A DNA stretch of 64,000 nucleotides from Terriglobia bacterium (GTDB lineage: Bacteria > Acidobacteriota > Terriglobia > Terriglobales > Acidobacteriaceae): the NCBI GenBank assembly GCA_963724105.1, contig CAVRTD010000002.1, positions 29,650 through 93,649 on the forward strand. The letters run 5' to 3'. The first letter of the stretch is position 1, and each line of letters starts with the position of its first letter. This document shows positions 33,913 through 51,395 of the stretch, piece after piece. The notes beneath the pieces are model-generated. The model saw only the letters and a list, made by a program, of their open reading frames with translations. It was not told the origin of the DNA and ran no database searches. The translations under genes were made by a program, and so were the position numbers.

Positions 33913-36819
33913 ATGGCGAGCGTATCTACCCACACAACAAACGGAAATGGGCGACCGCAGCATGCAGTCCGGGACCGGCACTTCCCTATCCATGACAGTC
34001 GAAAAATCTGGATCGTAACCCGCGGCAAAATTGATGTATTTCTTCAAATCGTCGATGAAGACCACCGGGCAGGTGCCCGGTTCCATGTGATGCGCGCGGA
34101 AGAAGGGCAGGCAATTCTTGGTATCGACCTGAGTGAGAGGCCATACGTCAACTTGATCGCGTGCCCGCATCCCAACTCAGAGTTCTCATGCCGGGCCTTG
34201 GGAGATGTTTTCAATCCGCATCAGGTTGAGAACAATGCACAAGCTTTGGGCCTGCTGGAACAATGGATTGCCAGTCTCTACATAGCGGCGGAAGAAGAGA
34301 TGGTTCCCCGGAACTCGGTGGTCCTGCATCCCGGTGAAACACTTCCCATCACTGACCAGGTCGCGATTGTGCCCGGCGAGCAGCTCGTCTGGGGCAGGCA
34401 TTTAAAAGGTGAATCGCAGTTCCTCGGTCACGATATTGTGGTTGGAGATGGAGAACCCTTCCCCATTTCCAAACAAGGCAGAGGCTGGCTACTGGCGGCC
34501 AAAAACAGCATTCTGGAAGGCCTGGACTTCGCTACGGTGATGCAGGAAGATCCAGGATGGCGCTGGCTGCGAAAATTCCACTCCGCTGCCTTGACCTGTC
34601 TCCTCGTCAACCGCGAACGCCGTGATTCCACGAAGCGACAAGGAATCATAAAACAACAGCAGTCAGACGCCGCATTGATACACAGAAGCCTTCTGGGCCT
34701 GGCCTCTCCTCTGAATAAAGAGGTTGCAGAACGTGCGGGAAATGCCGGCGCCGCGAGCGATCCTTTGCTGCTGGCGTGCCAGAAAATTGGATCTGAGATT
34801 GGAGTAGATTTTCAGAGCGCATCGGGCGACTCACAGGATGGCGATCAGGCGCACGCGGTTGAGATCATTGCCAAGGCAGCCAGTGTTCGTCATCGCCGAG
34901 TGCTCCTGCGCTCCAACTGGTGGCACCAGGAAAATGGCCCTCTGCTGGGGTTTGTACGCGCAACAAGCCGCCCTGTGGCCTTGCTGCCTCGGCGCGGAGG
35001 GTATCAAGCTTACGATCCGGTTGCAGGCACTTCTACACGAATCAAAGATGCATCATGGCTGGAGCCGTTTGGGTACAGCTTTTATCGCCCTTTCCCGCTC
35101 AAAAAATTAGGCAGCCGTGATCTGCTTCTCTTTGCATTCCGAAGCGTGAAAACCGACTTCATGATGATTGTCCTCATGGGAATTGCAGGGGGCCTCGCCA
35201 GCCTTGTCGTGCCGGTTGTAACCGGACTTATCTTTGATTCCGTAATTCCCGGCGCAGACCGTGGGGAGCTGTTTCATCTGACCGGATTTCTGCTGGTAGC
35301 AGCTTTGGCAACGGCACTGTTCTCCCTGGTGCGCAGTTTCGCCGTAATTCGCATGGAAGGCCGCATTGATTCGGTAGCCCAGCCGGCCATGTGGGACCGC
35401 GTGCTCCGTCTCCCAGTTCCCTTCTTTCGCAATTACAGTGCCGGCGATCTTGCCGTAAGAAGTCTGGCGGTCAATCAGATTCGACAGGTCCTTACCAACT
35501 CGACTCTGTCGTCGATTCTTTCCGGCATCTTCTCGGTATTCAGCTTTGCTTTGCTCTTCTATTACAGCTGGAAACTTGCATTATTTGCGACTGCTCTGGT
35601 TGGAGTAGGAGTGGCCGTGTCTATGGTCTGCGCTTATTTGCAACTCCGTTCCCTGCGCCAGATGACACGCATGCGCGGAAAGCTCACCTCAATGGTGCTG
35701 CAATTCATCAATGGCGTAGCCAAGTTCCGGATCTCAGGATCTGAAAAGAGAGCTTTTGCAGCGTGGTCTACGGTGTTCGCAAATCAGAAACGGCTCTATT
35801 TAAACGGACGACGCGCCAGCAATGCCCTGGCAGTATTTCAGTCGGCGTTTCCCATTCTCGCCTTCGCCGTGATTTTCGTGGTAACTTCCGGGAAGGTTGG
35901 CCAATCGACGGATTCTACTCTCTCTACGGGAGCGTTCCTGGCTTTCCTGGTGGCCTTCACGCAACTCCTGAGTTCCACCATGCAGTTGAGTTCGTCTGTG
36001 AGCTCGATTCTGAACGTGGTACCGCTCTACGAGCGAGCGCTGCCAATCCTTCAAACATTGCCAGAGGTGGATGAAAACCAGACCAGCCCGGGTGAGTTAA
36101 AAGGCGGTATTGAGGTAACAAACGTCAGCTTCCGCTATACACCGGACGGACCGCCAACCCTGCACGATGTTTCCTTCAGCATAAAGCCTGGTGAATTCGT
36201 AGCATTTACCGGACCTTCCGGTAGCGGGAAATCCACTTTAGTGCGGCTCCTGCTCGGATTTGAGACGCCGGAATCAGGAACTATTTCCTACGATGGCCAG
36301 GATGTAACCGGTGTTGATATTCAGGCTGTACGCCAGCAAATTGGAGTGGTAATGCAAAGCGGCAGGCTAACCTCCGGCAGCATTCTGGAAAATATCATCG
36401 GCTCGTCACATCTCACTGTGGACCATGCGTGGGCGGCCGCGCGTCTTGCGGGCCTGGATCGCGATATACAAGCCATGCCGATGGGAATGCACACAATGGT
36501 CAGCGACGGAGGTGGCGGTTTTTCCGGAGGCCAGCGCCAGCGTTTGATGATTGCTCGCGCTGTCGCCAGAAAACCTAGAATTCTCTTTTTCGATGAAGCC
36601 ACCAGCGCTCTCGACAATCAGACCCAGGCTATCGTCAGCAATAGTCTGGAAACACTGCAGGCCACTCGTGTAGTCATCGCACACCGTTTAAGCACCATTA
36701 TGAACGCAGACCGGATTTTTGTTTTTGACCGCGGCGGTATCGTGCAATCCGGGAAATACCACGAACTGGCGGAGCAGCCAGGCCTGTTTCGCGATTTAGT
36801 TCGGAGGCAGGTGGCTTAA
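33913..36819 (+). CDS. second ABC transporter ATP-binding/permease protein with ~400-aa N-terminal extension (NHLM ABC2-like)
   Basis: Walker A GPSGSGKST, signature FSGGQRQR, Walker B ILFFDEATS. The N-terminal extension contains a beta-roll-like segment (KIWIVTRGKIDVFLQIVDEDHRAGARFHVMRAEEGQAILGI). A later segment resembles a non-catalytic C39-like domain. Domain calls for the extension are inference. Confidence 0.85.
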   Translation: MASVSTHTTNGNGRPQHAVRDRHFPIHDSRKIWIVTRGKIDVFLQIVDEDHRAGARFHVMRAEEGQAILGIDLSERPYVNLIACPHPNSEFSCRALGDVFNPHQVENNAQALGLLEQWIASLYIAAEEEMVPRNSVVLHPGETLPITDQVAIVPGEQLVWGRHLKGESQFLGHDIVVGDGEPFPISKQGRGWLLAAKNSILEGLDFATVMQEDPGWRWLRKFHSAALTCLLVNRERRDSTKRQGIIKQQQSDAALIHRSLLGLASPLNKEVAERAGNAGAASDPLLLACQKIGSEIGVDFQSASGDSQDGDQAHAVEIIAKAASVRHRRVLLRSNWWHQENGPLLGFVRATSRPVALLPRRGGYQAYDPVAGTSTRIKDASWLEPFGYSFYRPFPLKKLGSRDLLLFAFRSVKTDFMMIVLMGIAGGLASLVVPVVTGLIFDSVIPGADRGELFHLTGFLLVAALATALFSLVRSFAVIRMEGRIDSVAQPAMWDRVLRLPVPFFRNYSAGDLAVRSLAVNQIRQVLTNSTLSSILSGIFSVFSFALLFYYSWKLALFATALVGVGVAVSMVCAYLQLRSLRQMTRMRGKLTSMVLQFINGVAKFRISGSEKRAFAAWSTVFANQKRLYLNGRRASNALAVFQSAFPILAFAVIFVVTSGKVGQSTDSTLSTGAFLAFLVAFTQLLSSTMQLSSSVSSILNVVPLYERALPILQTLPEVDENQTSPGELKGGIEVTNVSFRYTPDGPPTLHDVSFSIKPGEFVAFTGPSGSGKSTLVRLLLGFETPESGTISYDGQDVTGVDIQAVRQQIGVVMQSGRLTSGSILENIIGSSHLTVDHAWAAARLAGLDRDIQAMPMGMHTMVSDGGGGFSGGQRQRLMIARAVARKPRILFFDEATSALDNQTQAIVSNSLETLQATRVVIAHRLSTIMNADRIFVFDRGGIVQSGKYHELAEQPGLFRDLVRRQVA

Positions 36820-37991
36820 TGGATAACCTACTGAAGTTTCGCGCCGAAGTACTAAACTCTTGCGGAGCCAGCAGTTCAGAAACCCAGGAACTCCTTGCCT
36901 ATAGTGATAACCGCTTTGACCACGCAGGGCTGGCGGAGATCGTGTTTCCTCTTGCTGATGAACCTTTTGTGAAATCCTGGAAAGCCTATGGAGAAGAGGT
37001 TACAGCAGCGGGCACTTTCTCAATCCTTGCGAAATACCTCGTCCAGTTACGGTTTCCCATCAGGACAGGCATGAGTCAGGATCCTGATTATCTTGCGGCT
37101 ACCACCAGAGGCACAGGCTTTGCAACGGATGGGCCCCTGGGTCTTCCACTGATCGCACCAGAGAAATGCCACGTTGTCCTGCACCCGACTCCGGCCGGCC
37201 ACATACCATTGTTGATTGCTGAAGAGCGCATGGACTTCGTATTGCTGGTACAGGCACTTGCCAGGCGCAACGAACCGACTCCTATTCCGGCTTCCATGGG
37301 CGCCTGCATGGTCAGCGGCTACAACAACTGGGATCGAGTCTTCCAGGTTGTCCAGAAAGATGGAGCGGCACGATCCCTGAATCCTTCCGATTATCAGGAT
37401 CGTTTTATCATTCTTAGCAAAGGCTACTATAGCGGGGTGGAGCCTGCCGCTATGTCTCTCCAGGAACGCGAGTGGCGTGAACTATCCTTGATCATTCGGC
37501 GAGAACATGAGTCAACGCACTACTTTACGCGGCGGGTATTCTCCTCCATGCGTAATAATTTGCTCGACGAAATCCTCGCTGATTATTGTGGGGTTGTTAC
37601 AGCTACAGGCCGCTTCCTTCCAGACTGGATGCTCCGCTTCTTTGGCCTGGAACATTTTCCGCACTATCGTTCAGGCGCAAGGCTGGAGAACTATAAGGGT
37701 AAACCGGCGCTTTCCGCTGGCGCTTTTTTGGTTTTGCAAAAGCTCGTCAAGCAGGCGATTGACAACCTGGGCGCCATGAATGCCCCGATAGCAAAGAGTG
37801 ACTGGCAAAGCTCTCCATTCCCGCTGCTTGGGTTGCTGGCCTTGTCCAGGTTCACGCTGGAGGAGCTGGCTTCCGGCGACGCGCCCGATCTAATACAGGC
37901 TGAACTCTTGCGCCTGGAAACTGCCGGCATCGGCTCGCGTCGATCCATCAACTACGATCCACACACAACATCATTAGGCCAGGCTGGGTGA
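36819..37991 (+). CDS. unknown protein with HExxH motif, translationally coupled to the ABC2 gene
   Basis: 390 aa. The ATG shares a base with the upstream TAA (TAATG). The sequence REHESTHYFTRRVFSSMRNNLLDEILADY contains HESTH plus a downstream Glu, compatible with a gluzincin-like site. There is no signal peptide or TM. Confidence 0.5.
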   Translation: MDNLLKFRAEVLNSCGASSSETQELLAYSDNRFDHAGLAEIVFPLADEPFVKSWKAYGEEVTAAGTFSILAKYLVQLRFPIRTGMSQDPDYLAATTRGTGFATDGPLGLPLIAPEKCHVVLHPTPAGHIPLLIAEERMDFVLLVQALARRNEPTPIPASMGACMVSGYNNWDRVFQVVQKDGAARSLNPSDYQDRFIILSKGYYSGVEPAAMSLQEREWRELSLIIRREHESTHYFTRRVFSSMRNNLLDEILADYCGVVTATGRFLPDWMLRFFGLEHFPHYRSGARLENYKGKPALSAGAFLVLQKLVKQAIDNLGAMNAPIAKSDWQSSPFPLLGLLALSRFTLEELASGDAPDLIQAELLRLETAGIGSRRSINYDPHTTSLGQAG

Positions 37992-38010: not shown

Positions 38011-38550
38011 ATGAGAAAAATTTTTTACATCATGGGTATTTTGGAAGACAGTGATATGGATTGGCTTGCCGCACATGGAACGGCGAAGTTTTTGGAGCCG
38101 GGCACTGTGCTGGTGCGTGAAGGTGAGCCCATCGACTCCGTTTACATTCTGCTTGATGGCCATCTATCTGTCATTAGCCAGCGTCTGGACCGGGAAATCG
38201 CGTCTCTTTCTTGCGGAGAAATGCTCGGGGAGATCTCATTTGTCGATTCCCGTCCCCCCTCGGCATCAGTGGTAGCTGGTCGGGAATCCTATGTGCTGGC
38301 TTTGTCACGCGATGTTTTGACTACTAAGTTAGGAGATGATTCAGGTTTTGCAGCCCGCTTTTATCGCGCGGTAGCTACGCTGCTGGCAGATCGCCTGCGC
38401 ACGACTGTGGGCCAATTGGGTTATGACATGCAAAAGCAGACAGCAGACAGTGATTATCTGGACGATGACTGGATGGAAAACATCTCATTCGCAGCGGCCC
38501 GGTTTGATCAGTTGCTCAAGAAATTCGGTTTAGGCCAGCCAGCGGCATAG
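38011..38550 (+). CDS. cyclic-nucleotide-binding domain protein without DNA-binding domain
   Basis: LEPGTVLVREGEPIDSVYILLDGHLSVI...GEMLGEISFVDSRPPSASVVA is a canonical cNMP-binding (CAP_ED) motif. At 179 aa it has no HTH tail. Confidence 0.85.
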   Translation: MRKIFYIMGILEDSDMDWLAAHGTAKFLEPGTVLVREGEPIDSVYILLDGHLSVISQRLDREIASLSCGEMLGEISFVDSRPPSASVVAGRESYVLALSRDVLTTKLGDDSGFAARFYRAVATLLADRLRTTVGQLGYDMQKQTADSDYLDDDWMENISFAAARFDQLLKKFGLGQPAA

Positions 38551-38642: not shown

Positions 38643-39872
38643 CTAGCCGAGGATGGCAGGCAGCGCGCTGGCAGGTCTGTCTGGTAAATCGAAACCTGTT
38701 GAAATAGGCATGGAAGGACCTAAGTAGCGCAACGTAAGCACGGTTATATCGTCAGACTGAGGGGCGCCAGCTGAGAACTCACGAATAGACTTCAGAAGTC
38801 CTGCGACCACTTCTTCCAACGGCAAGGTACTCGTTTCCTCTAAAAGAGTCTGCAGGCGCTCACCTGAAAATTCATTCTCTTCCGTGTCAAAAGCTTCCGT
38901 GACGCCATCTGTATAAAGAAAGAGACCCTCGCCCGGTTTTAAGCAGAGCTTTTCTGTAGGGTATGTTGCACCCTCCAAAACTCCTAGGACCGGCCCTCCA
39001 TCGCCGCTGGTAAGTTGGGCATGGCCGGCGAAGAAGCGATAGGGCATACTGTGACCGCCTACGCTGAATTCCAGCTCTCCGGAAACGGTGTTCAGAACTC
39101 CATAGAACATCGTGACGAACATTGCGGGCACATTTTCTCTGCACAACAGCTCATTTACGATGCTCAGGCAATCACCCGGGGAAGAAGATCGACCTGCCGT
39201 GGCGCGCATCAGGGCCCGGGTCGCAGTCATGAACAGGCCTGCCGGGACGCCTTTGCCGGCAACGTCGCCAATCACAAAGCCAATTCTTTCCGCATCGATT
39301 GGAAAGTAGTCATAGAAGTCGCCACCGACCATGCGGGCTGTGATCATCTCCGCGCAAAGCTCCAGGCCGGATCCTTTCATTCCTGGTTGCGAAATCTGTG
39401 GCAGCATTGCGTGCTGAATTCGAGATGCCAGATCAAGCTCACACTCCACCGCCATCAGCTGCTTGTGTGTTCTCGCGGCCTCTTTGATCCGCTGCAGTTC
39501 CCGCACGGTTTTTTGAAGGGTAGATTCGACATCAGTGAAATCAATGGGCTTGGTCAAAAAATCAAAAGCACCGCGGTTCATCGCGGCGCGGATATTCTTG
39601 AGATCGCCATAGGCGGAAACCACAATTGTCTTGAGGGAGCGCGGCATTTCAGTCAAATGCGATAGCAGCGTCAAGCCATCCATCTCCGGCATATTCAGGT
39701 CGCTGAGAACAATTTCAATAGAAGGGTCTTCCCGCAGGGCTTCTACGGCGTTGCGCCCGTTGCTGGCAAAGCGGAACTCAAACTCTTTGCTTTCAATCTG
39801 CCGCCGAAACTTTCTCCTGACAAGAACTTCCAGGTCAGTTTCATCGTCCACAACAAGTATTCGAACTGGCAT
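38643..39872 (-). CDS. response regulator with PP2C/SpoIIE-type phosphatase output
   Basis: Start [11 protein letters not shown] (RBS AGGAG; the ATG lies 1 nt after the upstream TGA). REC motifs are present (..[12 protein letters not shown]..). The PP2C part reads GGDFYDYF...[17 protein letters not shown]...DGVTEA...DDITVL. Confidence 0.85.
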
Positions 39873-39873
39873 C

Positions 39874-41430
39874 TCAACTCCTGGGTAGGCGTATAACAAA
39901 CTCGGCGAATTCACCATCGGTGGAGTTCAACAACAATTGTCCCCGGTGGCCGCGGGTCACAATGTCATGGCTGATGGAGAGCCCCAACCCCGTTCCCGAT
40001 CCTGCAGGCTTGGTAGTAAAGAACGGCTCAAAAATCTTTTCCCGAATGGATTGCGGTATCCCATTGCCGTTGTCGCGCAATACGATTTCCACTGACTTTT
40101 CCAGGTTTCGCGTGCTCACCCGAATCCTGGGAGTGAACTGGGCGCAACTTTTCTTCTTTTCCAGAACAGCCTGATAGGCATTCATTGCCAGGTTCAGGAC
40201 AACCCGGCCAAGGTCCGTGGGACGGCAGAGCAGTTTGCTGAGCGTGACATCGTAGTCAGTCTCAAGCACGACCTCGCTATTCGACCCGCCGCCTGTCGCG
40301 GTGGCGCGGGCAAAGTTAAGGTAGCGCGCAATCACCTCGTTGATATCGGCAAGCTCCGCTTCACCAGCGCCTGAGTTGCAGTGCAGCAACATGCCATTCA
40401 CAATCTCGTTTGCCCGTGCGCCGTGTTCTCTTATCTTTTGCAAGTCCTCGGTTAAATCGGCGAGATGCTCTCGAATCGCTGGCGCCGAGGGACCCAGCTC
40501 TCGATCTATTTCCTGGACGGTATCTGCCGCCGTGATTGCGAAATTGATGACAAAATTAAGAGGATTTTTGATCTCATGAGCTACCCCTGCAGTAACTTCT
40601 CCCAGTGATGCCAGGTGTTGCTGAACCAGGATCTGGCGGCGGTACCTCTGTTTATCCAGCGCCGAGGAGATACGCGCCCGCAGCAACACGGATTCAAAAG
40701 GCTTCTGGAAGTAATCTTCTGCGCCCATGGAAATGCACCTCACTACGCTTTCCATGTCGTTGAGCGCAGAAATTACAATAATGGGCAGGTCTGGCTTTGC
40801 GGATTTCAGGTGTTTCAATACCTCATATCCGTTAATGCCGGGCATAAGTATATCCAGCAGGACCAGGTCGTATGCATTTTTACTGGCAAGATCAATGGCC
40901 TCAGCTCCATCGGCTGCCACGGAAACGCGGTACTTAAGCCGCTGAAGCATGCGCGCCAGCACATCACGATTCGCCGAGTCATCATCGACCACCAGCAAAT
41001 GACCGAGTGAATCAGACATCTCCGCCTTGGCGGCTGCAGGGCTCGCCACCACGGGGCCATTCAGGGAGCCTGTTTGCACAAATCTCGTAAGTTTTCCGGT
41101 GGCTTGCAGCAGTCGTTGCACATCGGCGAATTGAGGGGAAGATTTGTCCAGCGGTCGCGAAATCAAAGACTCGTAGATTTTCTCCAGTCGTGGCTTGAGA
41201 TTCTCACGCAAGTCCGAGACCCGCTGCTCTGTCGCATCTTTCTCAGAAGATGGAAGCGACAGCTCTATCTGGTTCAGAATATCTTTGCCCAAGACAGCAA
41301 TCTGCTCGAAATAGATCACGTCATCGCTCGCGCCGGCTTCCAGTGCATCTTCAATCAGCAACTGGCTGTAACCGAGAAGATGGTTCACCGGCGTGCGGAG
41401 ATCGTGTCGTAGTAGCTGCGTTTGTAACAT
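39874..41430 (-). CDS. hybrid histidine kinase: N-terminal extra H-box segment - REC - HisKA - HATPase
   Basis: The N-terminus [19 protein letters not shown] looks like a DHp H-box. REC is [14 protein letters not shown]...[13 protein letters not shown]. The second H-box is [12 protein letters not shown]. The ATPase part is DNGNGI...GTGLGLSI. Confidence 0.85.
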
Positions 41431-41497
41431 TGTCCTGTCGGGATTAAAAACTTATTGGAATCAAGAGCAAGAAAAAGACCGGCGCTTGGGAGACCGG

Positions 41498-41875
41498 CTA
41501 GACCTGGCTCTTGGCGGCAAGAAGCCTGTCCATCTTTTCCAACAGTCGAGGTAGTTCGATTGGCTTGGTATCGTAATCGTCGCAACCGGACTGCAACGCA
41601 CGTTGCCGGTCGCTTTCCATAGCGTGCGCCGTAAGCGCGATAATGGGAATGGAGTTTACCAGCGGATTCCCTTTAATCGCAGACGCTGCCTCCCATCCGC
41701 TCATCTTAGGCAGGCTCATATCCATCAGAATGAGGTCGGGTTTGGCAGTCTGCGCCATGGCGACTCCTTCCACGCCGTCGATGGCTATTTGAACCTCAAA
41801 GCCTTTGCGCAGCAGGCGCCGCGATAACATGTCGCGATTCATCTCGTCATCTTCAACAATCAGTATGTTGGGCAT
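41498..41875 (-). CDS. CheY-like single-domain response regulator
   Basis: MPNILIVEDDEMNRDML...LILMDMSLPKMSGWE...IIALTAHAM; 125 aa. Confidence 0.9.
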   Translation of the reverse strand: MPNILIVEDDEMNRDMLSRRLLRKGFEVQIAIDGVEGVAMAQTAKPDLILMDMSLPKMSGWEAASAIKGNPLVNSIPIIALTAHAMESDRQRALQSGCDDYDTKPIELPRLLEKMDRLLAAKSQV

Positions 41876-41901
41876 TGGGATTCCTCACAGTCTTTGTTTC
41901 A

Positions 41902-44900
41902 TTAAATTACAGGCACTGCAGCTGGGATATCGGCAGGCCTGTTCATCGAACGTGCCAGCACAGCGATCAGTTCCTTCCGGGAGACGGGCTTGAGCAGATA
42001 GTCGTTCGCTCCCATGGAGAAAGCAAAGTTTTTGTCGTCAACAATGGACATCATGATGACAGGAATGGATGAGAGAGCAGGATCGTTTTTCAGTTCGCGC
42101 AGAAGCGACCAGCCATCCATGCCAGGCATGATTACGTCCAGCGTAACGGCGGACGGTTTAAGCTCGCGGGCTTTCCGCAGCCCTTCCTCGCCAGTGTACG
42201 CCGACTCCAGGCGAAGTCCCGCGCGGGAAAGATAACGACTGATCAGGTCATGCATGACCGGATCATCGTCCACCACGAGCACAGTTTGTTCGTAATTTTC
42301 AAATGTTACGTCTGGTTCCATTTCCGCCAACTCCTTTTTGTATTGAGATACCGCAGCCGGCAACTTCACGTGGAAAGCACTTCCCTCGCCCGGCCGGCTA
42401 TTCACGACGATGTCACCACCCATCATTTGGCAGAACTGCCGGCTAATGGCCAATCCAAGACCGGTCCCGCCGTACTTCCGGGTAACAGAAGAATCAGCCT
42501 GCTGAAAGGGTACAAATAACTTGCTTAGCTGTTCCGGCGTCATGCCAATGCCGGTATCACGGACGGTAAAGCACACCCAATCTCGCCCATCCACGCTGTA
42601 TTTGTTTGCGCCGATGGTAAGGACCCCATTGAAAGTGAATTTGGCCGCGTTGCTGGCCAGATTCAGCAGCACCTGCCGCACCTTGGTGACATCCGCCTCC
42701 ACGCTTCCAATCCCTGCGGGAATCTCCATCTGCACGGCGTTCCCGTTCTTGCCGATAAGAGGAGCGGCCACGGCGAGCACTTCTCTTAAAAGGGTTTCCA
42801 CCGAAAAAACCTCAAGGTACAGCTCCATCCGCCCTGATTCGATTTTTGCAATGTCAAGAATGGAATTGATCAGGCTTAGCAAATGCTTCCCCGCATGATG
42901 GATCTTTTCCAGGTCAGAAACGAACGCCGTTGCATCCGTTTCTTCCGCTTCCTCTTTCAACATCTCGCTGTATCCGATGATGGCATTCAGCGGTGTACGC
43001 AATTCATGGCTCATGCGCGCTATGAATTCACTCTTGGCCCGATTCGCCTGTTCCGCCGCGGTTTTTTCGGCGCTCTTCCTTTCGCGTTCCTGTATCTCAG
43101 CTGAGAGCTGTGAAAGTAAGCGCGTATTTCCGATCGCCAGGCTACTTTCATTGGCAACCGCCTGCAGCAAACGCAGGTCTGACGATGTGTATGGATGGTC
43201 GAATCGTTTTGGCCCCAGGCTGATGATCCCAATGAGATTGGCGGCGCTCATCAGCGGCAGCAGCAATTGCGCATGCAAAGTCTTGAGGGCTTCCTGTTCT
43301 TCCATTGGCAGCGTATGCACGGTTGAACCAGGATCGTCAAAATAAATGAGCATCGGTCCGCCATTTTCCGAGAGCAGCTCAAACACTTTGCTTTGCTCCT
43401 CCAGGTGCAGCATCGTCGCGGATGCGTGGCCTGTCCAGTGCTCCAGACAGTAGCGATTTTGTTTTTCCAGAAGCACCGCCACATAGGAAATACCCAGAGC
43501 AGACGTAAGATGAGCACTCACCGCATCCAGCAATGCCTTTGTCTCGCGAAAAGTCCCTGCCGTATCCAGAAACGTAGCCAGGGTCTGCTCCGATCCATAG
43601 TCTTCTGGAAAAAAGCGGCGATCCATCCATGAATTGGCCTTTTGCAGGACCGGTGACTGCAACACAATGAGCAGGACCATCCCGCCGATTAAGCTCTGCA
43701 ACTGCACAGCCTTTGAGAAATAGAGAAGAGATGCCAGCAAGAGACAGACCGTGGCGATTTTAAGTGTCGAGATGCTCCGCTGATCAAGGGCATATTTAAG
43801 GCTTTGGCGAACCAGCCCGCGGACTTCCGGCGAGCGATGAACCACAATGACATAGGCCAGCGTGCAGGGAAAAAGCACCAGCGAACATAACGCGGTGGCC
43901 GCAAATGACCAGGGAACTGCCTGAAATGCAGATTTGCCGCGAACCAAAGCGATGACAATCCACAAACACGCAGGCCCAAGACTGGCCAGTGTGCCGAGCC
44001 ATATCAGCTTAAGCCTGCGATACTCATCGCTCCCGCGTGGGACCTGCAGCAGTTTCAGCAGCAGGGTAATGAAACAAACGGCAATTGCTGTGGCGGTTAG
44101 ATACTGAATGCTGTGCTGAAGTTCAGGATAACCAAGCCTTACCGTCCGCATTCTTGCGAAATTGGTTTCCTCCGCCGCAACCGCAATTGCGTCTGCTGCC
44201 ACGTTGACGGCGATGGGAACAATCAATATCCACTTAAGCCAGGGAATCCGTCTATTCCATCCAGCAGGACGAGGGAAATAAATTCCAAACAGCAATAGCC
44301 AGATGCCGAATGATTCCGGCACTACGCTTTCATAGATGAATGCCGGAACACGCAATCCGGTTTCCCATCCTGGCTGCACGGCAAGCAGAGAGAAACTTAA
44401 CAAGAGTGCGAGCAACAGCCACGCAAGAGGATCATACGAGCGCTCAAATGTCACCCAGAATCCCAGGAACAAGCAGAACGCGGGCAGCACGATCTGCGTA
44501 ACAATCAGAATTGTAAGAGTGTCTGACTTGGGCGGCGCCGGGCGCTTGGGTTGCAGAGTAATTTCAAAATGTGAGAGCGTCCTGTCTGCGTGTTGTACTT
44601 GCACTTTCAGGTGATCGCCGGGATTCAAGTGCTCCACGGAGCCATGCAGGATTGAATCGCTATAGAAGCGCTTTCCATCGATTTCTGTCAGCGTGTCGCC
44701 GGGGCGCAAACCGGCGCTCTTGCTTTCCGGCAGAGCGTAAGTAATCGTCTGCTTTTGGTCATAGATGAATGGCTCGCGAGCGCGCGAAGTAGCATAACGA
44801 ATCTCATTTACGATGTGCAGCACATAGAACCACTGGAAGCCGGCTGTTACAACCAGCATCAGGGCCAAAAGACAGTAACGCACTATACGTGCGTGTGATT

Positions 44901-44958
44901 TCAAAAACATCAAACGACGGTCCATGAGATCCATTGAATCGGAATCAAGCGTGTTCAC
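41902..44958 (-). CDS. large hybrid sensor kinase: PDZ-like - multi-TM - GAF-like - HisKA - HATPase - REC
   Basis: The PDZ-like segment is [41 protein letters not shown]. About 10 hydrophobic helices follow. The H-box is [19 protein letters not shown]. The ATPase part is DTGIGM...[11 protein letters not shown] is [13 protein letters not shown]...[13 protein letters not shown]. Confidence 0.85.
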
Positions 44959-46700
44959 GGTCGTTCCTGCCTTGTATCCAACTCAGCAAGTTGCGACGGG
45001 CTTGTTGCAAAAGAACTTCCATCGGCGTTCAACCGCGGAGGAAATGCGCGCAGCTCTCTCTGGAAATAGCGGCTGTACCGCTCGCGGAATGGTGCAGGGC
45101 GGTCTGAAGCTTTTTCTTCCAGCAGCGACGGCAAAACATCGTCAACAAAATACATTTCGGCCTGGCGGTTCCCTTTTATTCCGACCAACCCGCGCGGCGT
45201 GCAGGAAAAAAAATCCTTCAACCGCTGAAAAGCACGCTCTGAGACATTAATCTTGTTGGCCGCGCCTGACATCACCATGCGCGATGCGAAATTAACAGCA
45301 TCACCCCACACATCAAAAGCAAATTTGCTTGTTCCAACCACGCCCGCGATTACAGAACCTGTGTGAATGCCAATTCTCATGGACCAGCCGGGATGGGGCC
45401 GGCTCTGCTGAGCGGCCATCACATACTGCAGCATTTCTATCGAAGCCAGCAGCGCGTCAACCGGGTGAGATGGCGTGCGCTCGGGGAGACCAGACAGAAA
45501 AATGTAGCTGTCGCCCACCGTTTTCAGCTTCTCCAGGCCGTAACGATCAACGATGGTGTCGAAAGCCGTGAAATATTCGTTTAACAGTGTAACCAGTTCA
45601 TCGGCCGTAAGTTTTTCCGTGGACGACGTGAAACTCACAAAGTCGGTGAAAATGATGGTGACATCCTCGAAATAGGTTGGCGAGACCGAACCGCGAAGCT
45701 GGAGTTCCTCGCACACCTTCCTGGGAAGAATACTCAAGAGCAGCTTCTCGGTGGTTTGTCTCTCGGCCTCAAGTTGAAGCAGGGCAGCTTTTAGCTGCTC
45801 AGTTTGTTCTCTTTCGAGATCACGTGACTGTTTACGGTCCAGCAGAGCGCGCACACGAGTGCGAAGAAGTGTGGCGTTAAAAGGCTTCAGAACGTAATCG
45901 TCCGCTCCTGTTTCGATGCAGGCGACAACTTTCTCGGTGTCGTCGACACCTGAAATCATGATAATGGGTATGTCTTTTGCAGGCTGGCCAGACTTTGCTG
46001 CCCGAAGAACTTCGAACCCGCTGGCTCCCGGCATCACCAGATCAAGAAGGACCAGATCGATGCGCCTCTTGTCGATCATTTGCAGAACTTCATGGCCATT
46101 CACCGCGAATATTACATCGTACTTGTCGCGGCGAAGTATGCGCGCGAGCAAATCGCGGTTTGCCTCGTCGTCATCAGCAACCAGTACAACCTGTTTTTCA
46201 CCTGCAATGGAAAGCCGCGCGTCGTCAGGAGTAAGTAAACCCGGCACAAGCCGCGGAGCTTCCGCCACTGGAGCGATGATCTGCTCAAACAACTTCAAAA
46301 ACTGGTGGACGGTGAATTCAAGTTCCAGAAGATCTTCGATCATGCCGGGATCCGCGTGGCCGCGCACCATAACTTGAATTTGCCTGATTCTTTCCTGAGT
46401 CTCTTTAGCGCGCAACAAAAGCCTCTGCCCTTGTGAGGGATCGCCGTCAACTCGCTGTCCGGAGCGGCCGGGTGCGGTCATCTGAAGGTCTTGCAGCAAT
46501 GACACTGCCTCCGCCTTTAGCTGGTCTAAAGGTCCGGCCAGCCCAGCCTCGCCTGCCGCTTGTCCAATTTCCATCTTCAGCAACTCACAACTGGTGACTA
46601 TATGGTTGACGCAGTCTCGAAGTTTAAGTTGGGCATCACCAGATAAGGCTGTCGATTCAGCCGGCAAGCCTGATTTCGAAGATGTGGAGGTGAAGTTCAT
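44955..46700 (-). CDS. response regulator with class III adenylate/guanylate cyclase output
   Basis: REC is [15 protein letters not shown]...[14 protein letters not shown]. The cyclase part is [16 protein letters not shown]...KTVGDSYIF...[16 protein letters not shown]...[13 protein letters not shown]. The stop overlaps the next gene start by 4 nt, and the ATG lies 2 nt after the lanC stop. Confidence 0.85.
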
Positions 46701-46702
46701 TT

Positions 46703-47992
46703 TTACTCCCAGGAAAGTACAGAAGGTAGTAATTCCGGTTTCGCCGCCCTAAGGAGTTGATAACCGATGCCCGCGAGGCCCTTGTGAAATGTAAGAGGGG
46801 TATTGTCATTGCTGCGACCGAATCCGTAGCGCCCCCTGGTGATGGCGCGGCGCGCAACGGAGTTTGCCAACAGGACGGCCTGTTGCTTATGGCGCTCGAT
46901 TCCAAGTTTGCGCGCAGCCTCAAGAAAAAATTCGACACGTCCCAAAGTCCCACAGCACGGAAAATCGATATGGCTCAGCGTGCCAGACTTAGCTGCTGCT
47001 CGAAGGCATCGGTCAATATCCGCGCTGACCTCCGCCTGATCGAGACAAGAGCTATTGAGCCTGCCAAGGCCAATTCCTGGAGCGCCATTGCACCAGCTAT
47101 TCCAGCATTGATAGCCGCCCTGCTCCCGGGGCAGCAGTAGATGCGGCCAATTCCCTTCATCCTCACAGTAAAGGCTGTTCTCATAAGCCAGGGCTTCCGC
47201 TGCAGCATCCCGAAAGCTTGACTCTCCCGTAATCTCAAAGAGCCGGCAGAGAGCTTGAATTATTCCCGCAGCGCCATGCGCGTATCCGGTTTGGCACTTG
47301 CCTGGTGAAGTTTCCCATGCCCTCAGACCAGACGAGGTAGTAATGCGGGCGCGGAGCAGATGTTTACCCCATAGGGCTGCCTGTTCGATCATCCACGGTT
47401 CGGGAGCAAGACTATGAAGTGATGCACAAACTAATGCGCAGCCAGCGGATCCTCCCATCAGATCGACTCCACGCGCATTAACGATTCTCTGGTGAGGAAA
47501 ACGGCGTGCAATTCGGATTGCGGCTGAAAGCAACTCCTCATCGCCCATAAACGTGGCGATTCGCGCAAGGGAGTAGATGATCGAAAATGATCCCGTTCCG
47601 GCGCCTACGCCATCCCGCGCAAGCCAATCATCAACCTGTGTCGACGAAAGAGTGCGCAGCGGCTGCACTACGGCGCAAACCAGTGACCGGTACTCAGTTT
47701 TTTCAGAGATGTGGTCTAAAGCGGCAAGAAACAAACAAATTCCGTATGTTCCACCATACAAGTCGTGGCCAGAGAACTCTCGTCCACCGGACCAAGGATC
47801 ATGTTGCAGACGCCCTGTCCACGGAGCTATTCCACCCTCCGCAAAACTGGGCGATTGGGACACGATCGCACCAATGGCTGCGGCTTCATCAAGCAGCAAG
47901 CAATGAGCCCGACTAGCTTCTTCCTGATGGACTTCTGACGCGAACTCATTACTGTCGCGTTTATGAGTAGGCAACTCGATGATAGTTTTCAT
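46703..47992 (-). CDS. lanC: LanC-type lanthionine cyclase with Cys-Cys-Gly zinc motif
   Basis: Start at MKTIIELP (47992); the track ORF is extended upstream. Motifs are GYAHGAAGI, NSWCNGAPGIGL and FPCCGTLGRVEF, the last at the position of the usual CHG. Repeated GxxG helices are also present (GGTYGICLFL, GLAGIGYQLL). Confidence 0.85.
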   Translation of the reverse strand: MKTIIELPTHKRDSNEFASEVHQEEASRAHCLLLDEAAAIGAIVSQSPSFAEGGIAPWTGRLQHDPWSGGREFSGHDLYGGTYGICLFLAALDHISEKTEYRSLVCAVVQPLRTLSSTQVDDWLARDGVGAGTGSFSIIYSLARIATFMGDEELLSAAIRIARRFPHQRIVNARGVDLMGGSAGCALVCASLHSLAPEPWMIEQAALWGKHLLRARITTSSGLRAWETSPGKCQTGYAHGAAGIIQALCRLFEITGESSFRDAAAEALAYENSLYCEDEGNWPHLLLPREQGGYQCWNSWCNGAPGIGLGRLNSSCLDQAEVSADIDRCLRAAAKSGTLSHIDFPCCGTLGRVEFFLEAARKLGIERHKQQAVLLANSVARRAITRGRYGFGRSNDNTPLTFHKGLAGIGYQLLRAAKPELLPSVLSWE

Positions 47993-48020
47993 AAGGACAG
48001 ATCCGCAAAAAAATCTGCGA

Positions 48021-49382
48021 TCACATCCGAGATTCAGTTTGGCCAGGTTTCCAGAAAGACACTTTCGGCCTCCACCTGGCGTCGGAGCCCGATGGTAGGC
48101 TCTTTGATTCGAAAATGTCACTTCCGCTTCGAAGGAGAATCGATGCAAGCCTTGTAGTCTCCTGAGAGATGGCTGGATCGATTGGCGCACCATCCGTCAA
48201 GTCAGACCAAAACGCACTTTTTTTGCGTAGATCTACATTCAACACAAAAAGGTATGCGGCCGAAGCCAAAACAAGGTGGTGATGGAACCCTTTCCATGAC
48301 CGTCCCTGGTAGCAGCCCAGATCCAGATCACGTTCAAGACAGCCCTGGTACTGCTCCTGATACGAACGATGCCGGCTCAACCGGAGGCACATGGTTTCAG
48401 TTGGCCGTTTGTGGAAACGCGCGAGGTAACAACGATAAGGTTGTGCCTGCCCGTCGGGCCAATCGACAACAAACCAGAGTCTTTGGAGGCTGCTACTTAT
48501 CCCATGTAGACCGGAATCCAGGAAGACCTCGCGAATTGCAAGCCGCGTTTGCCGTGAAGTACCTTCACGCGTAGCCCAGGAGCAGCGCGACCATTCTGCG
48601 GCCCCGATTTTTTGCATGATTTTTTCCAGCGTGTATGGATGCGGCTGCAGGCTCGAATTCCATTCAGGCGTGTTGGACTGAAAATCCCAGGCAATATTCG
48701 TTTTTGGATCCACTTCCAGAAAGAATTCCATTCCAGCGTGCAATAAGGCTGAACGAAAATCGGCGTCGTTGCCGTAAGCAGCATCGCCTACCAGCGGCTT
48801 GGGATGGAGCCCGTCACCGGTCACTTCCCGCAATAGTGCTAGCACAAGGGATGACCGTGAGGGAAAACATGCATCCTTGGGGACCCCGGACCGCGACAGT
48901 CTCGATGACTCGGCAGCCCAGTCTGGCGGGAGATACAGCCGTGCAGCAAGCGGCGCCGCGAACGATCCATCACTGGCCAGTATCTCCACGCTGATCTGGC
49001 AACGGGACTTCTTGCCATCCGCGCCACATCGCTGGTTTGATACGCCGACAGATTCATTCCCCTGCTTTGTCCATGCTCTCTCATTCACCACCCAGCGATC
49101 GACCGGTTCAATAGTGGGAATGATTGCTCTACGTATGCGCGTCCAAACCTGTTGATCGTCCCATGGGCTGTTTGCAATCGTCTGATGCAGGCTCTGGGAG
49201 TCTACTTGCAGCCGCTCGGCAAGAGGACGAATGAATTTTCTTCTTCCGGGCAGCAGCAGGCCTTCAATGTATCTGGCGGTGGCGACCCGCCGCTCCTGCC
49301 TGCCGATGCTTTCCAGCAGCGTGGAGAGATAGCGAGTCAGGTAGGGAATATTTTCTTTATATGTTGCCAGTTCCCACTTCAT
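48021..49382 (-). mobile_element. IS701-family-like DDE transposase gene, apparently degenerate, no terminal inverted repeats found
   Basis: Start MKWELATYKEN with RBS GGAGG. The sequence WVVNERAWTKQGNESVGVSNQRCGADGKKSRCQISV...ARLYLPPDWA...VGDAAYGNDADFR...GCYQGRSWKGFHHHLVLASAAYLF follows the IS701 DDE_5 layout. The first catalytic position reads N-E-R where I expect D-D-T (motif recalled from memory). Confidence 0.65.
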
Positions 49383-49452
49383 AAATTCACGACCTCCCCT
49401 TCCGACCCACATCATGGTTCCCGAATTTCCGCGGTCTGGGCGAACATAGCGT

Positions 49453-50535
49453 CTAAGCAGACGCCTTCCACAAGATCGGCGACCGCATTGCGAACTCTAA
49501 AACCTCATCCATCGACTGATCCTGAATGGGAACGGGAAGCGCCGAATGGCGCAGCCACAGGAGACGCCATGTTCCGGGATACCATTGGCGCAACCTCTCG
49601 ACCCCGCGCCACAACAGTCGCGAGAGGTACACCTCTTCAGGGTTGTTCAATCCAATCCGATTGGCAGTCATGTGAATGTGGCTTGACGTAATGGGCCAGT
49701 GGGCTTGCCGGGAAAGACCGCTGATCTCAGCAGCCAGGCCCCGGCTAATATTCACCAGGCTGGACGGCTCACAATTTTTGCTGGCACACACGGACTCAAG
49801 CTCTGCGATTACTAATTCTGTAATCTGCTTTTCCTGCCGCGAAAACACAAGATCAGCCTCCCGAATACAAGGCTCCAGCGAATCACCCCATGCCTCTGAG
49901 GCATACGCGGCGAGCCGGACAAAATCTTCTTCGTCACCCGCCAGTCCCCAGGCAAGTTGGAGGGCCAGACGCATCATCGCGGAGTTAATCCAGTCACGAC
50001 GGGAATTGCCGCGTTCATCCAGCATTTTCAGGATAGCCAGACTGGAGATGCAAAAAAGATCAATCGAGGCGCCGATATGGTCTGCGCCTCCATAGCGATT
50101 GATTTCAAACACAGGGGTAAACTGCCGCCATGAATTGTCCGCGTAGACACGACTAACGTCCGCTCGTGCTGCCGGATCAGTGGTTGCAATCGCCCGGTTC
50201 GTAGCCAGGATCTGGTCCTGAGCAACCGGCGCTTTAGAAGGATACTTGTCAAAAAAACCGGCAGCGCGCTTTTGTAGAACTTCCTCCGCGCGTCCACTGG
50301 TATTTTCATCTTTCAATCGCCAGCGCAAACGGAGATGAGGGCCTCCAAGCGAGTACCGGACAAAATAAAACCGGTCGATCACTCCCAGGCTAGCCAGTTC
50401 GAGCATGAGCGGCCACGCCAGTTCCCGCAACATTCTGTCGCGATCGGCATGATAGAACACGTGGTATGCGCGCCAGCGCAGCAATGAATCTGGGCACGTG
50501 CCACCATTAGATTGACCTATAAGTTGCGTTGCCAT
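49453..50535 (-). CDS. stand-alone LanB C-terminal (SpaB_C / thiopeptide-type) elimination-domain protein
   Basis: LLRWRAYHVFYHADRDRMLRELAWPLM...IDRFYFVRYSLGGPHLRLRWRL and the C-terminal SSHIHMTANRIGLNNPEEVYLSRLLW match the Lant_dehydr_C / TIGR03891-type pattern (W..Y...; FF.RY..GPHLRLR; H.h.NR). Confidence 0.8.
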   Translation of the reverse strand: MATQLIGQSNGGTCPDSLLRWRAYHVFYHADRDRMLRELAWPLMLELASLGVIDRFYFVRYSLGGPHLRLRWRLKDENTSGRAEEVLQKRAAGFFDKYPSKAPVAQDQILATNRAIATTDPAARADVSRVYADNSWRQFTPVFEINRYGGADHIGASIDLFCISSLAILKMLDERGNSRRDWINSAMMRLALQLAWGLAGDEEDFVRLAAYASEAWGDSLEPCIREADLVFSRQEKQITELVIAELESVCASKNCEPSSLVNISRGLAAEISGLSRQAHWPITSSHIHMTANRIGLNNPEEVYLSRLLWRGVERLRQWYPGTWRLLWLRHSALPVPIQDQSMDEVLEFAMRSPILWKASA

Positions 50536-51395
50536 GCGTAGAGAATAATTGGGATTTCTTGTAATACGATTTGCCCCAATTGCAGCAGAGTGAAGTGGTT
50601 GATCGAGCGCAGGAGACCGAACCCCTGAGCGAGAGAAGACTTTGATTGCGAGACGATCAGGAGAACCAGTCCGTCCACGTCCACCGAGAGGTCAGTTTCT
50701 TCATTCCATATTTCGGAAAAGAATTTCTGATTTGCCCGCGAGACGGCTTTTTGCAGCCATTCGCTTGACATCTCTGGCCGTTCCTTGATGCTTTGCTCCA
50801 GCCCGAACAGAAGACTTCCAGCATGGAAGCGCCAGTAGTCCGCGGGCGGAATTTTTTGCCTTTTCAATGATCGATCAACCGCTGCCAGCCAGCGAACCGC
50901 TGCTCGTGAGACGTTGCCGCCAGCTTGCTCCAAGGCCCAGAAACATACCTGGTCGATGCGCTCCCAGAGTTCATCTGCCGCAGCAACGCCGGCATTGAGC
51001 AGAAAGGGATAGCCATTGTGTTCATGCTCAAAAATCTGAAAGGAGTTGTTCAGGGCTGAACCTGGCTCTCGATCAGCCAGATTCATCGTCCTGCCCCTGC
51101 ACCCGCCGTGCCGTTCAGACACTTCCTGAGCGCTAAGTTGTGCGTGGCTTGGATAACGGGTAATAAATTTCTGAATATTGTCCTGGAGATAGGTCTTAAC
51201 GCAGTCTCCTCCGGCGGTTGTGGTGGTGAAGATGCCGAAGACGTGCGGGCTCCGCGCGTCATACGGGCAAAACCAGAGCCGCTGCAGCAATCCCTGCCGA
51301 CGGACATCGTGCGCCCACGCGTTGAGTCCGTGTTGCAGGAGGCGCTGCTGGTCCTCCATTCCCCAATAATAGATATTAAATCCGATATTCGTCAT
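50517..51395 (-). CDS. divergent SpaB_C-like paralogue (start uncertain)
   Basis: NIGFNIYYWGMEDQQRLLQHGLNAWAH...LQRLWFCPYDARSPHVFGIF and the C-terminal LLRSINHFTLLQLGQIVLQEIPIILYAW are collinear with the SpaB_C pattern. The canonical GPHLRLR and H..NR residues are replaced. Candidate starts are at 51395, 51419 or 51359. Confidence 0.5.
   Translation of the reverse strand: MTNIGFNIYYWGMEDQQRLLQHGLNAWAHDVRRQGLLQRLWFCPYDARSPHVFGIFTTTTAGGDCVKTYLQDNIQKFITRYPSHAQLSAQEVSERHGGCRGRTMNLADREPGSALNNSFQIFEHEHNGYPFLLNAGVAAADELWERIDQVCFWALEQAGGNVSRAAVRWLAAVDRSLKRQKIPPADYWRFHAGSLLFGLEQSIKERPEMSSEWLQKAVSRANQKFFSEIWNEETDLSVDVDGLVLLIVSQSKSSLAQGFGLLRSINHFTLLQLGQIVLQEIPIILYAWQRNL

Follow-up and report, generated by a model that had tools for sequence, protein, structure and literature searches.

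How can a lanthipeptide gene cluster be governed by sensory proteins none of which appears to bind DNA? This question is raised by a locus for a modified peptide, an antimicrobial or a signal, in a soil Terriglobia bacterium of the family Acidobacteriaceae (assembly GCA_963724105.1), which we studied in a 64,000-nucleotide stretch of contig CAVRTD010000002.1 (positions 29,650 to 93,649), hereafter called the window, with all coordinates below counted from its first letter. In this window, the gene for a LanC-type lanthionine cyclase is followed on the minus strand by five signaling genes (38643-46700), which encode a receiver (REC)-linked adenylate cyclase, a hybrid sensor kinase (HK1), a single-domain receiver, a second kinase (HK2), and a receiver-linked PP2C phosphatase. 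The regulation of clusters for ribosomally synthesized and post-translationally modified peptides (RiPPs), lantibiotics included, is understood almost wholly through LanRK-type two-component systems and cluster-situated transcription factors, with autoinduction by LanRK as the established lantibiotic case. We lean toward reading the five genes, from their sequences, as a multistep phosphorelay dedicated to the cluster, LanRK-like in its role, with enzymatic outputs, and tied to an NHLP-type exporter.

A five-gene signaling module adjoins lanC

The junctions of the module are as tight as the initial annotation of this DNA had stated. Reading the sequence directly, we found that the TAA of lanC (46705-46703) and the ATG of the cyclase gene (46700) have 2 nt between them, that the tetranucleotide GTGA at 44958-44955 overlaps the TGA of the cyclase gene with the GTG start of HK1, and that a single nucleotide lies between the TGA of HK2 (39876-39874) and the ATG of the REC-PP2C gene (39872). 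The two remaining junctions are wider, with 26 nt from the HK1 stop (41902) to the ATG of the lone REC gene (41875), a gap that contains GAGGA, and 67 nt from the lone REC stop (41498) to the ATG of HK2 (41430). The mechanical open reading frame (ORF) of REC-PP2C extends to 39917, and 39872 is its real start. We found no terminator-like site in the interval from lanC to the module, and this result, together with stop-to-start distances of 2, -4, 26, 67, and 1 nt, supports a single-operon reading. GC content is flat over the region, with no compositional anomaly. We propose that the module is the distal part of the lanthipeptide biosynthetic operon and is transcribed with it. Short intergenic spacing by itself is ordinary operon structure, and it is through conserved synteny that the finding rises above chance.

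The module is conserved beside lanthipeptide and export genes

We compared the locus with its relatives in about eleven metagenomic lineages, looking up relatives of the cyclase on contigs and scanning the HK1 sensor against species genomes. The order of an IS701-like transposase-derived gene, lanC or lanM, cyclase, HK1, REC, and HK2 was found in at least six divergent lineages. LanC occupies the Lan slot in the window and in locus L005, which belongs to the same species, in L001 to L004 (cyclase 71% identical to that of the window), and in the short contig L009 (57%). LanM occupies this slot in L007 (49%), which has LanB too, in L008 (48%), and in the Candidatus Angelobacter locus L014 (62% over the REC-cyclase). 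The initial annotation had tied the signaling genes to the lan genes, and this link holds in the relatives, as the adjacency of lanC or lanM to the cyclase gene recurs in six lineages with a gap of 2 to 3 nt in five of them and 12 nt in one.

At greater distance, a core of cyclase, HK1, and REC occurs with a B12-radical SAM enzyme in L026 (45% identity), whose contig begins 183 nt upstream of the cyclase gene, with a radical SAM enzyme and metallo-beta-lactamase (MBL)-fold and TPR proteins in L016 (45%), and in the Bryobacteraceae locus L012 (HK1 39% identical). The REC-PP2C gene completes the module in the window, L007, L008, L009, L010, and L026.

Export genes are the other recurrent neighbor. 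An export operon, or its tail of a DUF7005 gene and a gene for a cyclic-nucleotide-binding (CNB)-fold protein, lies beside the module in 7 of the 11 lineages (the window, L001, L010, L008/L025, L014, L026, and L012), and the contigs of the remaining 4 (L007, L009, L011, and L016) end too early to show an exporter. A 388-aa gene after REC-PP2C in L007 was considered as a DUF7005 gene; it had no Pfam match, so L007 is not counted as exporter-linked. The closest relatives of the CNB protein and of the second ABC transporter (ABC2) of the window's export operon, at 77 to 84% identity, are the module-linked ones. Judged by these gene neighborhoods, the clade of this relay architecture that carries a PDZ kinase is consistently RiPP- and exporter-linked.

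Domains and key residues of the module proteins

The first protein of the module, encoded at 44955-46700 (minus strand), matched the Pfam families Response_reg (95 bits) and Guanylate_cyc (165 bits) and is a REC plus class IIIa adenylate cyclase with a degenerate DHp-like dimerization domain in front. In an alignment with the C1 and C2 domains of AC9, both metal-binding Asp residues, the Lys/Asp adenine pair, the Asn, and the Arg were all found in one chain (six of six class III residues). With the six catalytic residues in a single chain, the protein should be an active homodimeric adenylate cyclase, and its Lys/Asp pair is of the ATP type. The cyclase and HK2 each begin with a helical hairpin of ~140 residues, and the two hairpins are homologous; in the cyclase, the His of this domain has been lost in four of five lan-linked orthologues, and we read the domain as a probable dimerization remnant.

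HK2 (39874-41430, minus strand) begins with a HisKA-like stretch (25.1 bits), followed by Response_reg, HisKA, and HATPase_c domains. The H-box of the N-terminal stretch is invariant among orthologues with a complete N-terminus, and no ATPase domain adjoins it. The DHp-plus-REC half was kept in every lineage, and the C-terminal kinase half is absent in L001, L011, and L014. We regard the N-terminal DHp as a candidate phosphotransfer domain.

HK1 (41902-44958, minus strand) would be the sensor of the system. Its predicted order is a transmembrane helix, a periplasmic PDZ domain, about nine further transmembrane helices, and then GAF, HisKA, HATPase_c, and Response_reg domains. The PDZ_2 match was borderline (26.8 bits against a cut-off of 27), and the PDZ domain was confirmed when a profile of 10 orthologues was compared with PDB sequences, the best matches being the PDZ domains of DegP, DegQ, and RseP (E = 3.6e-8). 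Hydropathy gave 9 to 10 transmembrane segments and placed the PDZ domain (residues 48-147) in the first external loop; no Pfam family matched the transmembrane block. These results bear out the PDZ-like domain, the roughly 10 transmembrane helices, and the GAF domain that the initial annotation had assigned to the large kinase. HK1 orthologues are 39 to 80% identical over their full length. The GAF domain was also considered as a cAMP sensor and set aside, as we saw no NKFDE-type motif in its sequence by eye. In L014, a GAF-SpoIIE (PP2C) phosphatase at 3079-4824 (plus strand, ORF from 2203) has an HK1-like N-terminal block of PDZ and multiple transmembrane helices (33% identity over ~580 residues), a homology that points to use of the same sensor block with either a kinase or a phosphatase output.

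The remaining two genes encode the lone REC (41498-41875, minus strand; Response_reg, 95.5 bits), which is 59 to 86% identical across all related loci, and the SpoIIE-type REC-PP2C phosphatase (38643-39872, minus strand; SpoIIE, 166.6 bits; Response_reg, 81 bits). Pfam detected five receiver domains within the five genes, one more than the four that had been counted in this island, and in the translations all five retain the acidic pocket together with the phospho-Asp, Ser/Thr, and Lys residues. As the initial annotation had held, no helix-turn-helix (HTH) or other DNA-binding domain was found by Pfam or NCBIfam in the five module proteins, nor in the nearby receiver encoded at 27448-27909 (minus strand). 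The latter is a NarL-type receiver of 153 aa without the GerE/HTH half, and a gene for a MASE1-PAS-PAS-HisKA_3 kinase (24884-27451, plus strand) converges on it with a 4-nt overlap.

A convergent NHLP-type export operon

A complete NHLP-type export operon on the plus strand converges on the module, and it encodes in order an NHLP-like precursor, TolC, HlyD, a C39-ABC exporter, ABC2, a DUF7005 protein, and the CNB protein. The precursor (28244-28555) has a leader ending in EEVAGG and a 7-residue core, CVLASTI; it matched TIGR03793 with 39.7 bits (E = 3.3e-10), below the curated cut-off of 50.9 bits. It is followed by a TolC-like outer membrane factor (28582-30330; Pfam OEP, 101 bits), an NHLP-system HlyD adaptor (30167-31591 as the ORF is listed, with the true start probably near 30344; TIGR03794, 313 bits, cut-off 156), the C39-peptidase ABC exporter ABC1 (31592-33910; TIGR03796, 1105 bits, cut-off 853; Pfam Peptidase_C39, 123 bits), and the NHLP-type ABC permease/ATPase ABC2 (33907-36819; TIGR03797, 930 bits, cut-off 709).

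Two proteins of this operon could in principle read a cyclic nucleotide. The match of TIGR03797 covers residues 285-969 of ABC2 only, and its first ~285 residues had no Pfam match even at E = 1. We modeled this N-terminal part with AF2 from a 60-sequence alignment (pLDDT 89.3) and obtained two beta-barrels, each followed by helices, at residues ~25-280. In Foldseek, the PDB entries that came closest were PKA and PKG regulatory subunits with their tandem CNB domains (probability 0.99), although at TM-scores of only 0.14 to 0.22. In the model, the extension appears as a tandem CNB-like fold, in keeping with the beta-roll-like ABC N-terminus proposed initially. No conserved GE...R[ST]A cassette, and no conserved Glu or Arg, was present in the 60-sequence alignment. 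Among the 120 closest relatives of ABC2, 94 have the same length, and all 94, Nostoc included, align over the first ~300 residues; as judged from these alignments, the extension is common to the whole TIGR03797 family, cyanobacterial members too. A search with the first 300 residues alone gave no match, which was a word-index artefact and no sign of uniqueness; the full-length query returned 155 relatives with the extension.

The last gene of the operon (38011-38550) encodes a CRP-like CNB-fold protein of 179 aa without an HTH, and the cNMP-binding protein that had been predicted here is supported by Pfam cNMP_binding (59 bits against a cut-off of 27.5) and by a CAP_ED fold. It matched TIGR03896 with 140 bits, under the cut-off of 161, over profile positions 139-317 in the C-terminal half only, and it is a single-domain relative of that family, a short form shared by about half of the closest family clusters. 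The AF2 model (pLDDT 90.8) shows the effector domain of GlxR/CRP with the dimer helix and no HTH (Foldseek E = 2e-10, TM-score 0.6 to 0.7). In its binding cassette, GEISFVDSRPPSASV, Pro takes the place of the phosphate-clamping Arg, and the cassette is invariant in seven orthologues. Across 220 domains of the family, this position is Pro in 118, Ala in 38, and Arg in 16; the cassette Glu is kept in 185, and in 97, as in this protein, there is an Arg two residues before its usual place. Because the Arg cassette is absent, the system falls outside the definition of a canonical cNMP receptor pair.

Between these two genes, always, stands the DUF7005 gene (36819-37991; Pfam DUF7005, 414 bits), whose product has an invariant HExxH...DE signature; in orthologues that cover the region, the motif REHE[SC]xHYF...(D/E)E..ADY is invariant. 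The HExxH and the downstream acidic pair suggest a putative zinc metallopeptidase. Related operons carry further precursor genes. In L024, four GG-leader peptides with Cys-free cores (LPPGRG, SFSNTRNHG, VVHEF, and FNEMQ) are encoded before the export operon (3640-4703, plus strand), and in L025 an NHLP precursor with core LLPCGASSCGTTNEMV is encoded before the export operon (296-607, plus strand). By their sequences, the short cores of these related operons look more like signaling peptides than like antibiotics.

A transposase-derived gene in the lanthipeptide operon

A conserved gene beside lanC had been overlooked in the initial annotation. It lies at 48021-49415 (minus strand) and matches the NCBIfam IS701 profile over its full length (248.6 bits). 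Six lineages have it in one position, flanked by the dehydratase genes on one side and by lanC or lanM on the other (L001, 7239-8627; L007, 5402-6787; L008, 5387-6745; L014, 5360-6739; and L009, 3-347, besides the window). The distance to lanC or lanM is 21 to 30 nt, the intergenic gaps are 21 to 38 nt, and in L007 the gene overlaps the gene upstream. Pairwise identities of its product (52 to 78%) rise and fall with those of the LanC domain, the cyclase, and HK1, including the pairing of L008 with L014.

We also compared the catalytic residues with those of five bona fide IS701 transposases, in which the first catalytic Asp, in the motif D-[DE]-T-G, is invariant. In five orthologues of the operon gene, this residue is N, N, H, A, and H, and the catalytic Glu is E, E, D, D, and E; the N-terminal region is the most conserved part of the protein. 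We found no inverted-repeat pair bracketing either the gene (48021-49415) or the whole block (38643-49415). The gene thus shares a full-length profile match with IS701 insertion sequences but differs from them in its lost first DDE Asp, its fixed operon position, its co-divergence with neighboring genes, and the absence of terminal repeats. Because of these features, we regard it as a domesticated and probably catalytically inactive transposase. It may be a candidate for the missing DNA-binding component, although to cast the IS701-derived protein as the DNA-binding part of an HTH-less system is speculation.

The biosynthetic genes

The module ends a nearly gap-free row of genes that occupies ~20 kb of the minus strand (38643-58529). 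At the head of the row is a NusG paralogue (57933-58529), possibly a LoaP-like processive antiterminator for a long operon, followed by an extra Lant_dehydr_C gene (56832-57854) and a LanB-type dehydratase with the glutamylation domain (53643-56399; Pfam Lant_dehydr_N, 82 bits). Two precursor genes of 51 codons each come next: lanA1 (53296-53451), with a leader ending in LEDASGG and the core CPIASCSANVCSGDLA, and lanA2 (52955-53110), with a leader ending in LEDVSGG and the core VLEPCPIASCSANVCSG. The leaders thus share the ending LED(A/V)SGG, both cores are rich in Cys and Ser, and orthologous lanA precursors occur in L001 and L007. Directly 3' of lanA2 is a 15-bp GC-rich hairpin with a T-run (52886-52921, minus strand), a site that is the usual place of a leaky terminator between a lantibiotic structural gene and its enzymes.

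Between the precursors and the elimination-domain genes lie two paralogues of ~230 aa (51376-52077 and 52138-52809), which belong to no family, apart from a faint TPR match, and are kept in L001 and L007. The elimination-domain genes (49453-51527; TIGR03891, 81 bits) are two of the Lant_dehydr_C/thiopeptide type, at 49453-50535 (Pfam Lant_dehydr_C, 113.6 bits) and 50517-51527 (weak match). After the IS701-like gene comes lanC (46703-47992; Pfam LANC_like, 172.6 bits), whose start is most likely 47992, not the ORF start at 48193. The best NCBIfam match of LanC is the C-terminus of LanM (TIGR03897, 275 bits), and the same slot holds a full LanM, with DUF4135 and LANC_like domains, in L007 (6809-9997), L008 (6773-9997), and L014 (6761-9997). 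This suggests that LanC derives from a LanM cut down to its cyclase domain.

Upstream of the row is a second synthetase of class III/IV type, with RamC_N, Pkinase, and LANC_like domains (60412-63132, minus strand), and L014 has a RamC/LanL-type gene near its module. By its predicted genes, the region is a RiPP supercluster. Pfam and NCBIfam scans recognized no dedicated LanI or LanFEG immunity genes in the cluster. Farther away, the domains of a multicopper oxidase are split over overlapping ORFs at 23228-23752 and 23622-24662 (minus strand), probably a frameshifted gene or a sequencing error.

Comparison with known systems

The module is most readily compared with LanRK systems such as NisRK and SpaRK, whose sensor and regulator genes likewise belong to the lan cluster and stand distally in its biosynthetic operon, and in which, by analogy, a membrane kinase could sense the exported peptide. 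Here, HK1 and HK2, each with HisKA and HATPase_c domains, are encoded directly downstream of lanC. In contrast to LanRK systems, however, no OmpR- or LuxR-type DNA-binding response regulator is present, and the module therefore falls outside the LanRK definition. It has a hybrid kinase, a second kinase or relay protein, and three receiver outputs (an adenylate cyclase, a PP2C phosphatase, and a bare REC), and its sensor is a block of PDZ, 10 transmembrane helices, and GAF, rather than a loop between two transmembrane helices.

Parts of the module have counterparts outside RiPP clusters. Receiver-regulated class III adenylate cyclases in phosphorelays are known from cyanobacteria as the CyaC type, with which our cyclase shares a receiver directly before a class III domain with the Lys/Asp pair and a hybrid kinase encoded alongside; it differs in its degenerate DHp in front, its lack of a kinase domain of its own, and its RiPP operon setting. 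In RsbK-RsbY of Bacillus cereus and HptB-HsbR of Pseudomonas, a hybrid kinase acts through a REC-PP2C on partner switching. The module similarly encodes a hybrid kinase and a REC-PP2C together, although here the PP2C is dispensable in two lineages (L001 and L014). The initial annotation had suggested partner switching, and the part of this idea that stands is the REC-PP2C itself; it is absent from these two lineages, and phmmer with RsbV and SpoIIAA queries, a search of low sensitivity, detected neither a STAS antagonist nor an anti-sigma factor in the window and the related loci.

The three-gene NHLP/N11P exporter was defined by Haft et al. 2010 (PMC2887384), and the plus-strand operon is a member, with HlyD, C39-ABC, and ABC2 proteins above the cut-offs of TIGR03794, TIGR03796, and TIGR03797. 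The association of CAP_ED domains with such exporters was described for cyanobacteria by Wang et al. 2011 as "group V" (PMC3140520) and is represented in NCBIfam by TIGR03896. As in those systems, an ABC2 with an N-terminal CAP_ED-like extension is followed by a CAP_ED-only protein. Our operon differs in that its CNB protein has one domain instead of the two of the TIGR03896 form, in its DUF7005 (HExxH) and TolC genes, and in the cyclase-containing phosphorelay that converges on it, which is unmentioned in PMC2887384 and PMC3140520. A further parallel is HetC of Nostoc PCC 7120, also a peptide-exporting ABC transporter with an N-terminal cNMP-type domain, which is required for function and which bound ppGpp (Kd 59 uM), not cAMP (PMC10986499). 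HetC differs in having a C39 peptidase and a single Pfam-detectable cNMP domain, and no linked cyclase is reported for it (PMC10986499).

A model for the module and its alternatives

From the gene order, domains, key residues, and synteny that we observed, we infer the signal, the order of phosphotransfer, and all targets in the following scheme for a cluster-dedicated phosphorelay. HK1 would sense an extracytoplasmic signal through its periplasmic PDZ domain and 10-transmembrane block, the likeliest signal being the free C-terminus of an exported, GG-cleaved cluster peptide, and its cytoplasmic GAF domain may provide a second input. Three GG-leader precursors are encoded here (lanA1, lanA2, and the NHLP-like one), along with a C39 exporter able to release them. 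That the PDZ domain senses a peptide is plausible, given the three GG-cleaved products encoded nearby and the very short cores of related operons. HK1 would then autophosphorylate at His651, and its own receiver would take over the phosphoryl group. The next carrier could be the DHp at the start of HK2, which has the His and no ATPase domain and would act as a phosphotransferase like ChpT or Spo0B. The receivers of the cyclase and of the PP2C phosphatase, as well as the lone REC, may be phosphorylated from there. In the cyclase, this would switch cAMP synthesis. Candidate downstream elements are the proteins with a CNB fold in the exporter operon, a distal CRP-type factor, and, for DNA binding, the transposase-derived protein.

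Several results weigh against this scheme. No canonical HPt domain was found by Pfam in the module proteins, which makes the phosphotransfer route a guess, and a comparison of 11 intergenic regions of the cluster for a shared operator yielded one common 11-mer, at chance level. The five-gene form is not an invariant unit, since L001 and L014 lack the REC-PP2C and, of HK2, have the DHp-plus-REC half without the kinase half. A cyclase of 45% identity in another Bryobacteraceae genome lies in a generic operon of dCache kinase, REC, and cyclase without RiPP genes, and the architecture of hybrid kinase, REC, and HisKA-REC-cyclase is common in non-RiPP contexts in Acidobacteriota, for example in L017 and L018, so that part of the arrangement is a lineage habit. 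Scanning 185,579 species genomes for the HK1 sensor gave 3 loci, in an exact-pattern scan whose yield is no measure of rarity or co-occurrence; a scan of metagenome contigs with the HK1 sensor profile gave one uninformative 1.5-kb fragment. The relatives all come from uncultured metagenome bins. The exporter, in turn, can occur by itself: in L024, an ABC2 of 48% identity heads a full export operon with DUF7005 and a CNB protein of the same cassette, and the stretch that we read, from ~10 kb upstream of ABC2 to ~7.5 kb downstream of it, contains no cyclase. On these comparisons, some genomes have the exporter module by itself, and the relay architecture is a theme general to acidobacteria.

The most direct alternative, and the one closest to the initial annotation, is that cAMP from the REC-cyclase is read by the 179-aa CNB protein, the N-terminus of ABC2, or both, so that export is gated post-translationally. 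A catalytically complete cyclase and two CNB-fold proteins are indeed encoded in convergent operons, a pairing conserved down to 45% identity; the CNB protein keeps the Gly-Glu and [ST]-A of the cassette and, like 97 of the 220 family domains, has the upstream-shifted Arg, and a CRP effector fold with a dimer helix and no DNA-binding domain would fit a protein-protein regulator. Still, the gating itself appears unlikely, as the phosphate-clamping Arg is Pro here and mostly Pro or Ala in the family, the same motif occurs in the orthologue from the cyclase-less export operon L024, the extension of ABC2, a feature of the whole family, shows no conserved binding cassette and low Foldseek TM-scores, and the CNB domain of HetC, the only one tested from a peptide exporter of the ABC type, did not bind cAMP but bound ppGpp, GTP, and GDP (PMC10986499). 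We find it somewhat less probable again that the module senses envelope stress or serves self-protection, responding to envelope damage or misfolding caused by the peptide, in the way of the PDZ domains of DegS and RseP, and adjusting immunity or physiology, not production. The PDZ domain of HK1 is closest to those of HtrA and RseP, which read exposed C-termini of envelope proteins, no dedicated LanI or LanFEG genes were recognized, and L014 has the same sensor block fused to a PP2C phosphatase; yet the module is coupled to a gene for a Lan cyclase or synthetase rather than to transport or immunity genes, and its association with diverse products (LanBC, LanM, and radical SAM) favors generic control of production or export, neither point being decisive.

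Two further alternatives concern the block as a whole. If an active IS701 element had moved lanC or lanM together with the signaling genes, the block would be mobile cargo or an accidental neighbor, as could be suspected from the full-length IS701 match and from the occurrence of the block in at least three different upstream or downstream contexts. We consider this reading very improbable and largely refuted: the first DDE Asp is replaced in 5 of 5 orthologues and the Glu is Asp in 2 of 5, no terminal inverted repeats surround the gene or the block, and there is no GC anomaly. The spacing of only 21 to 30 nt from lanC or lanM, the overlap in L007, and identities that track HK1, cyclase, and LanC also speak against it, and in L012 the export operon accompanies the module even without the transposase-like gene, whereas the contig of L026 cannot show this either way. 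The other possibility is that the coupled LanC or LanM modifies the signaling proteins themselves, much as eukaryotic LanCL enzymes act on dehydroamino acids in kinases, and that the block is a self-contained regulatory device. The gap from the Lan gene to the cyclase gene, at 2 to 12 nt, is the most conserved junction of the block, LanC and LanM are interchangeable in the slot, and a PP2C and two kinases are co-encoded. We give this idea the least credence of all, as the same operon encodes a LanB and bona fide LanA precursors whose cores contain Ser/Thr/Cys, the module kinases are His kinases, not Ser/Thr kinases, and L012, L016, and L026 have the core without a visible Lan enzyme (L026 being uninformative upstream).

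A more elaborate version of the phosphorelay reading would join these parts into a closed loop of peptide signaling, with second messengers in place of a transcription factor. In it, a short GG-cleaved lanthionine peptide, bearing the CVLASTI core or derived from the LanA products, would be exported and its free C-terminus sensed by the PDZ domain; the resulting cAMP or related nucleotide would act on non-canonical, Arg-less CNB domains of the exporter complex to gate export, and the dead IS701 protein, inherited together with the module, would serve as the DNA-binding arm. We regard this loop as improbable, more so than direct gating or stress sensing. If true, it would be a new class of RiPP quorum-sensing circuit, and the IS701 protein would be the first domesticated DDE transposase of a bacterial biosynthetic operon to have a function assigned.

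Implications

We found no prior description in the literature of a cyclase/PP2C phosphorelay fused to lanC or lanM, of the co-inheritance of such a module with an exporter, or of the domesticated IS701 gene, and none of DUF7005; adenylate cyclases are mentioned in passing for complex graspetide loci (PMC8939145). Overall, the initial annotation was supported in part. The locus points to cluster-situated sensory control of a RiPP in a form not yet described, with a mechanism that would have to be read from sequence as set out above. The sensory system coupled to the synthetase gene is predicted to have enzymatic outputs only, namely cAMP synthesis and protein dephosphorylation, and the arrangement recurs over lineages ~45 to 50% apart in protein identity, with three RiPP chemistries and the same type of exporter. 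If functional, it would supply a testable source of the nucleotide signal for the CAP_ED domains of NHLP/HetC-type exporters and a clean bacterial example of a DDE transposase kept as a host gene, and it would offer a handle with which to switch on silent RiPP clusters of acidobacteria.

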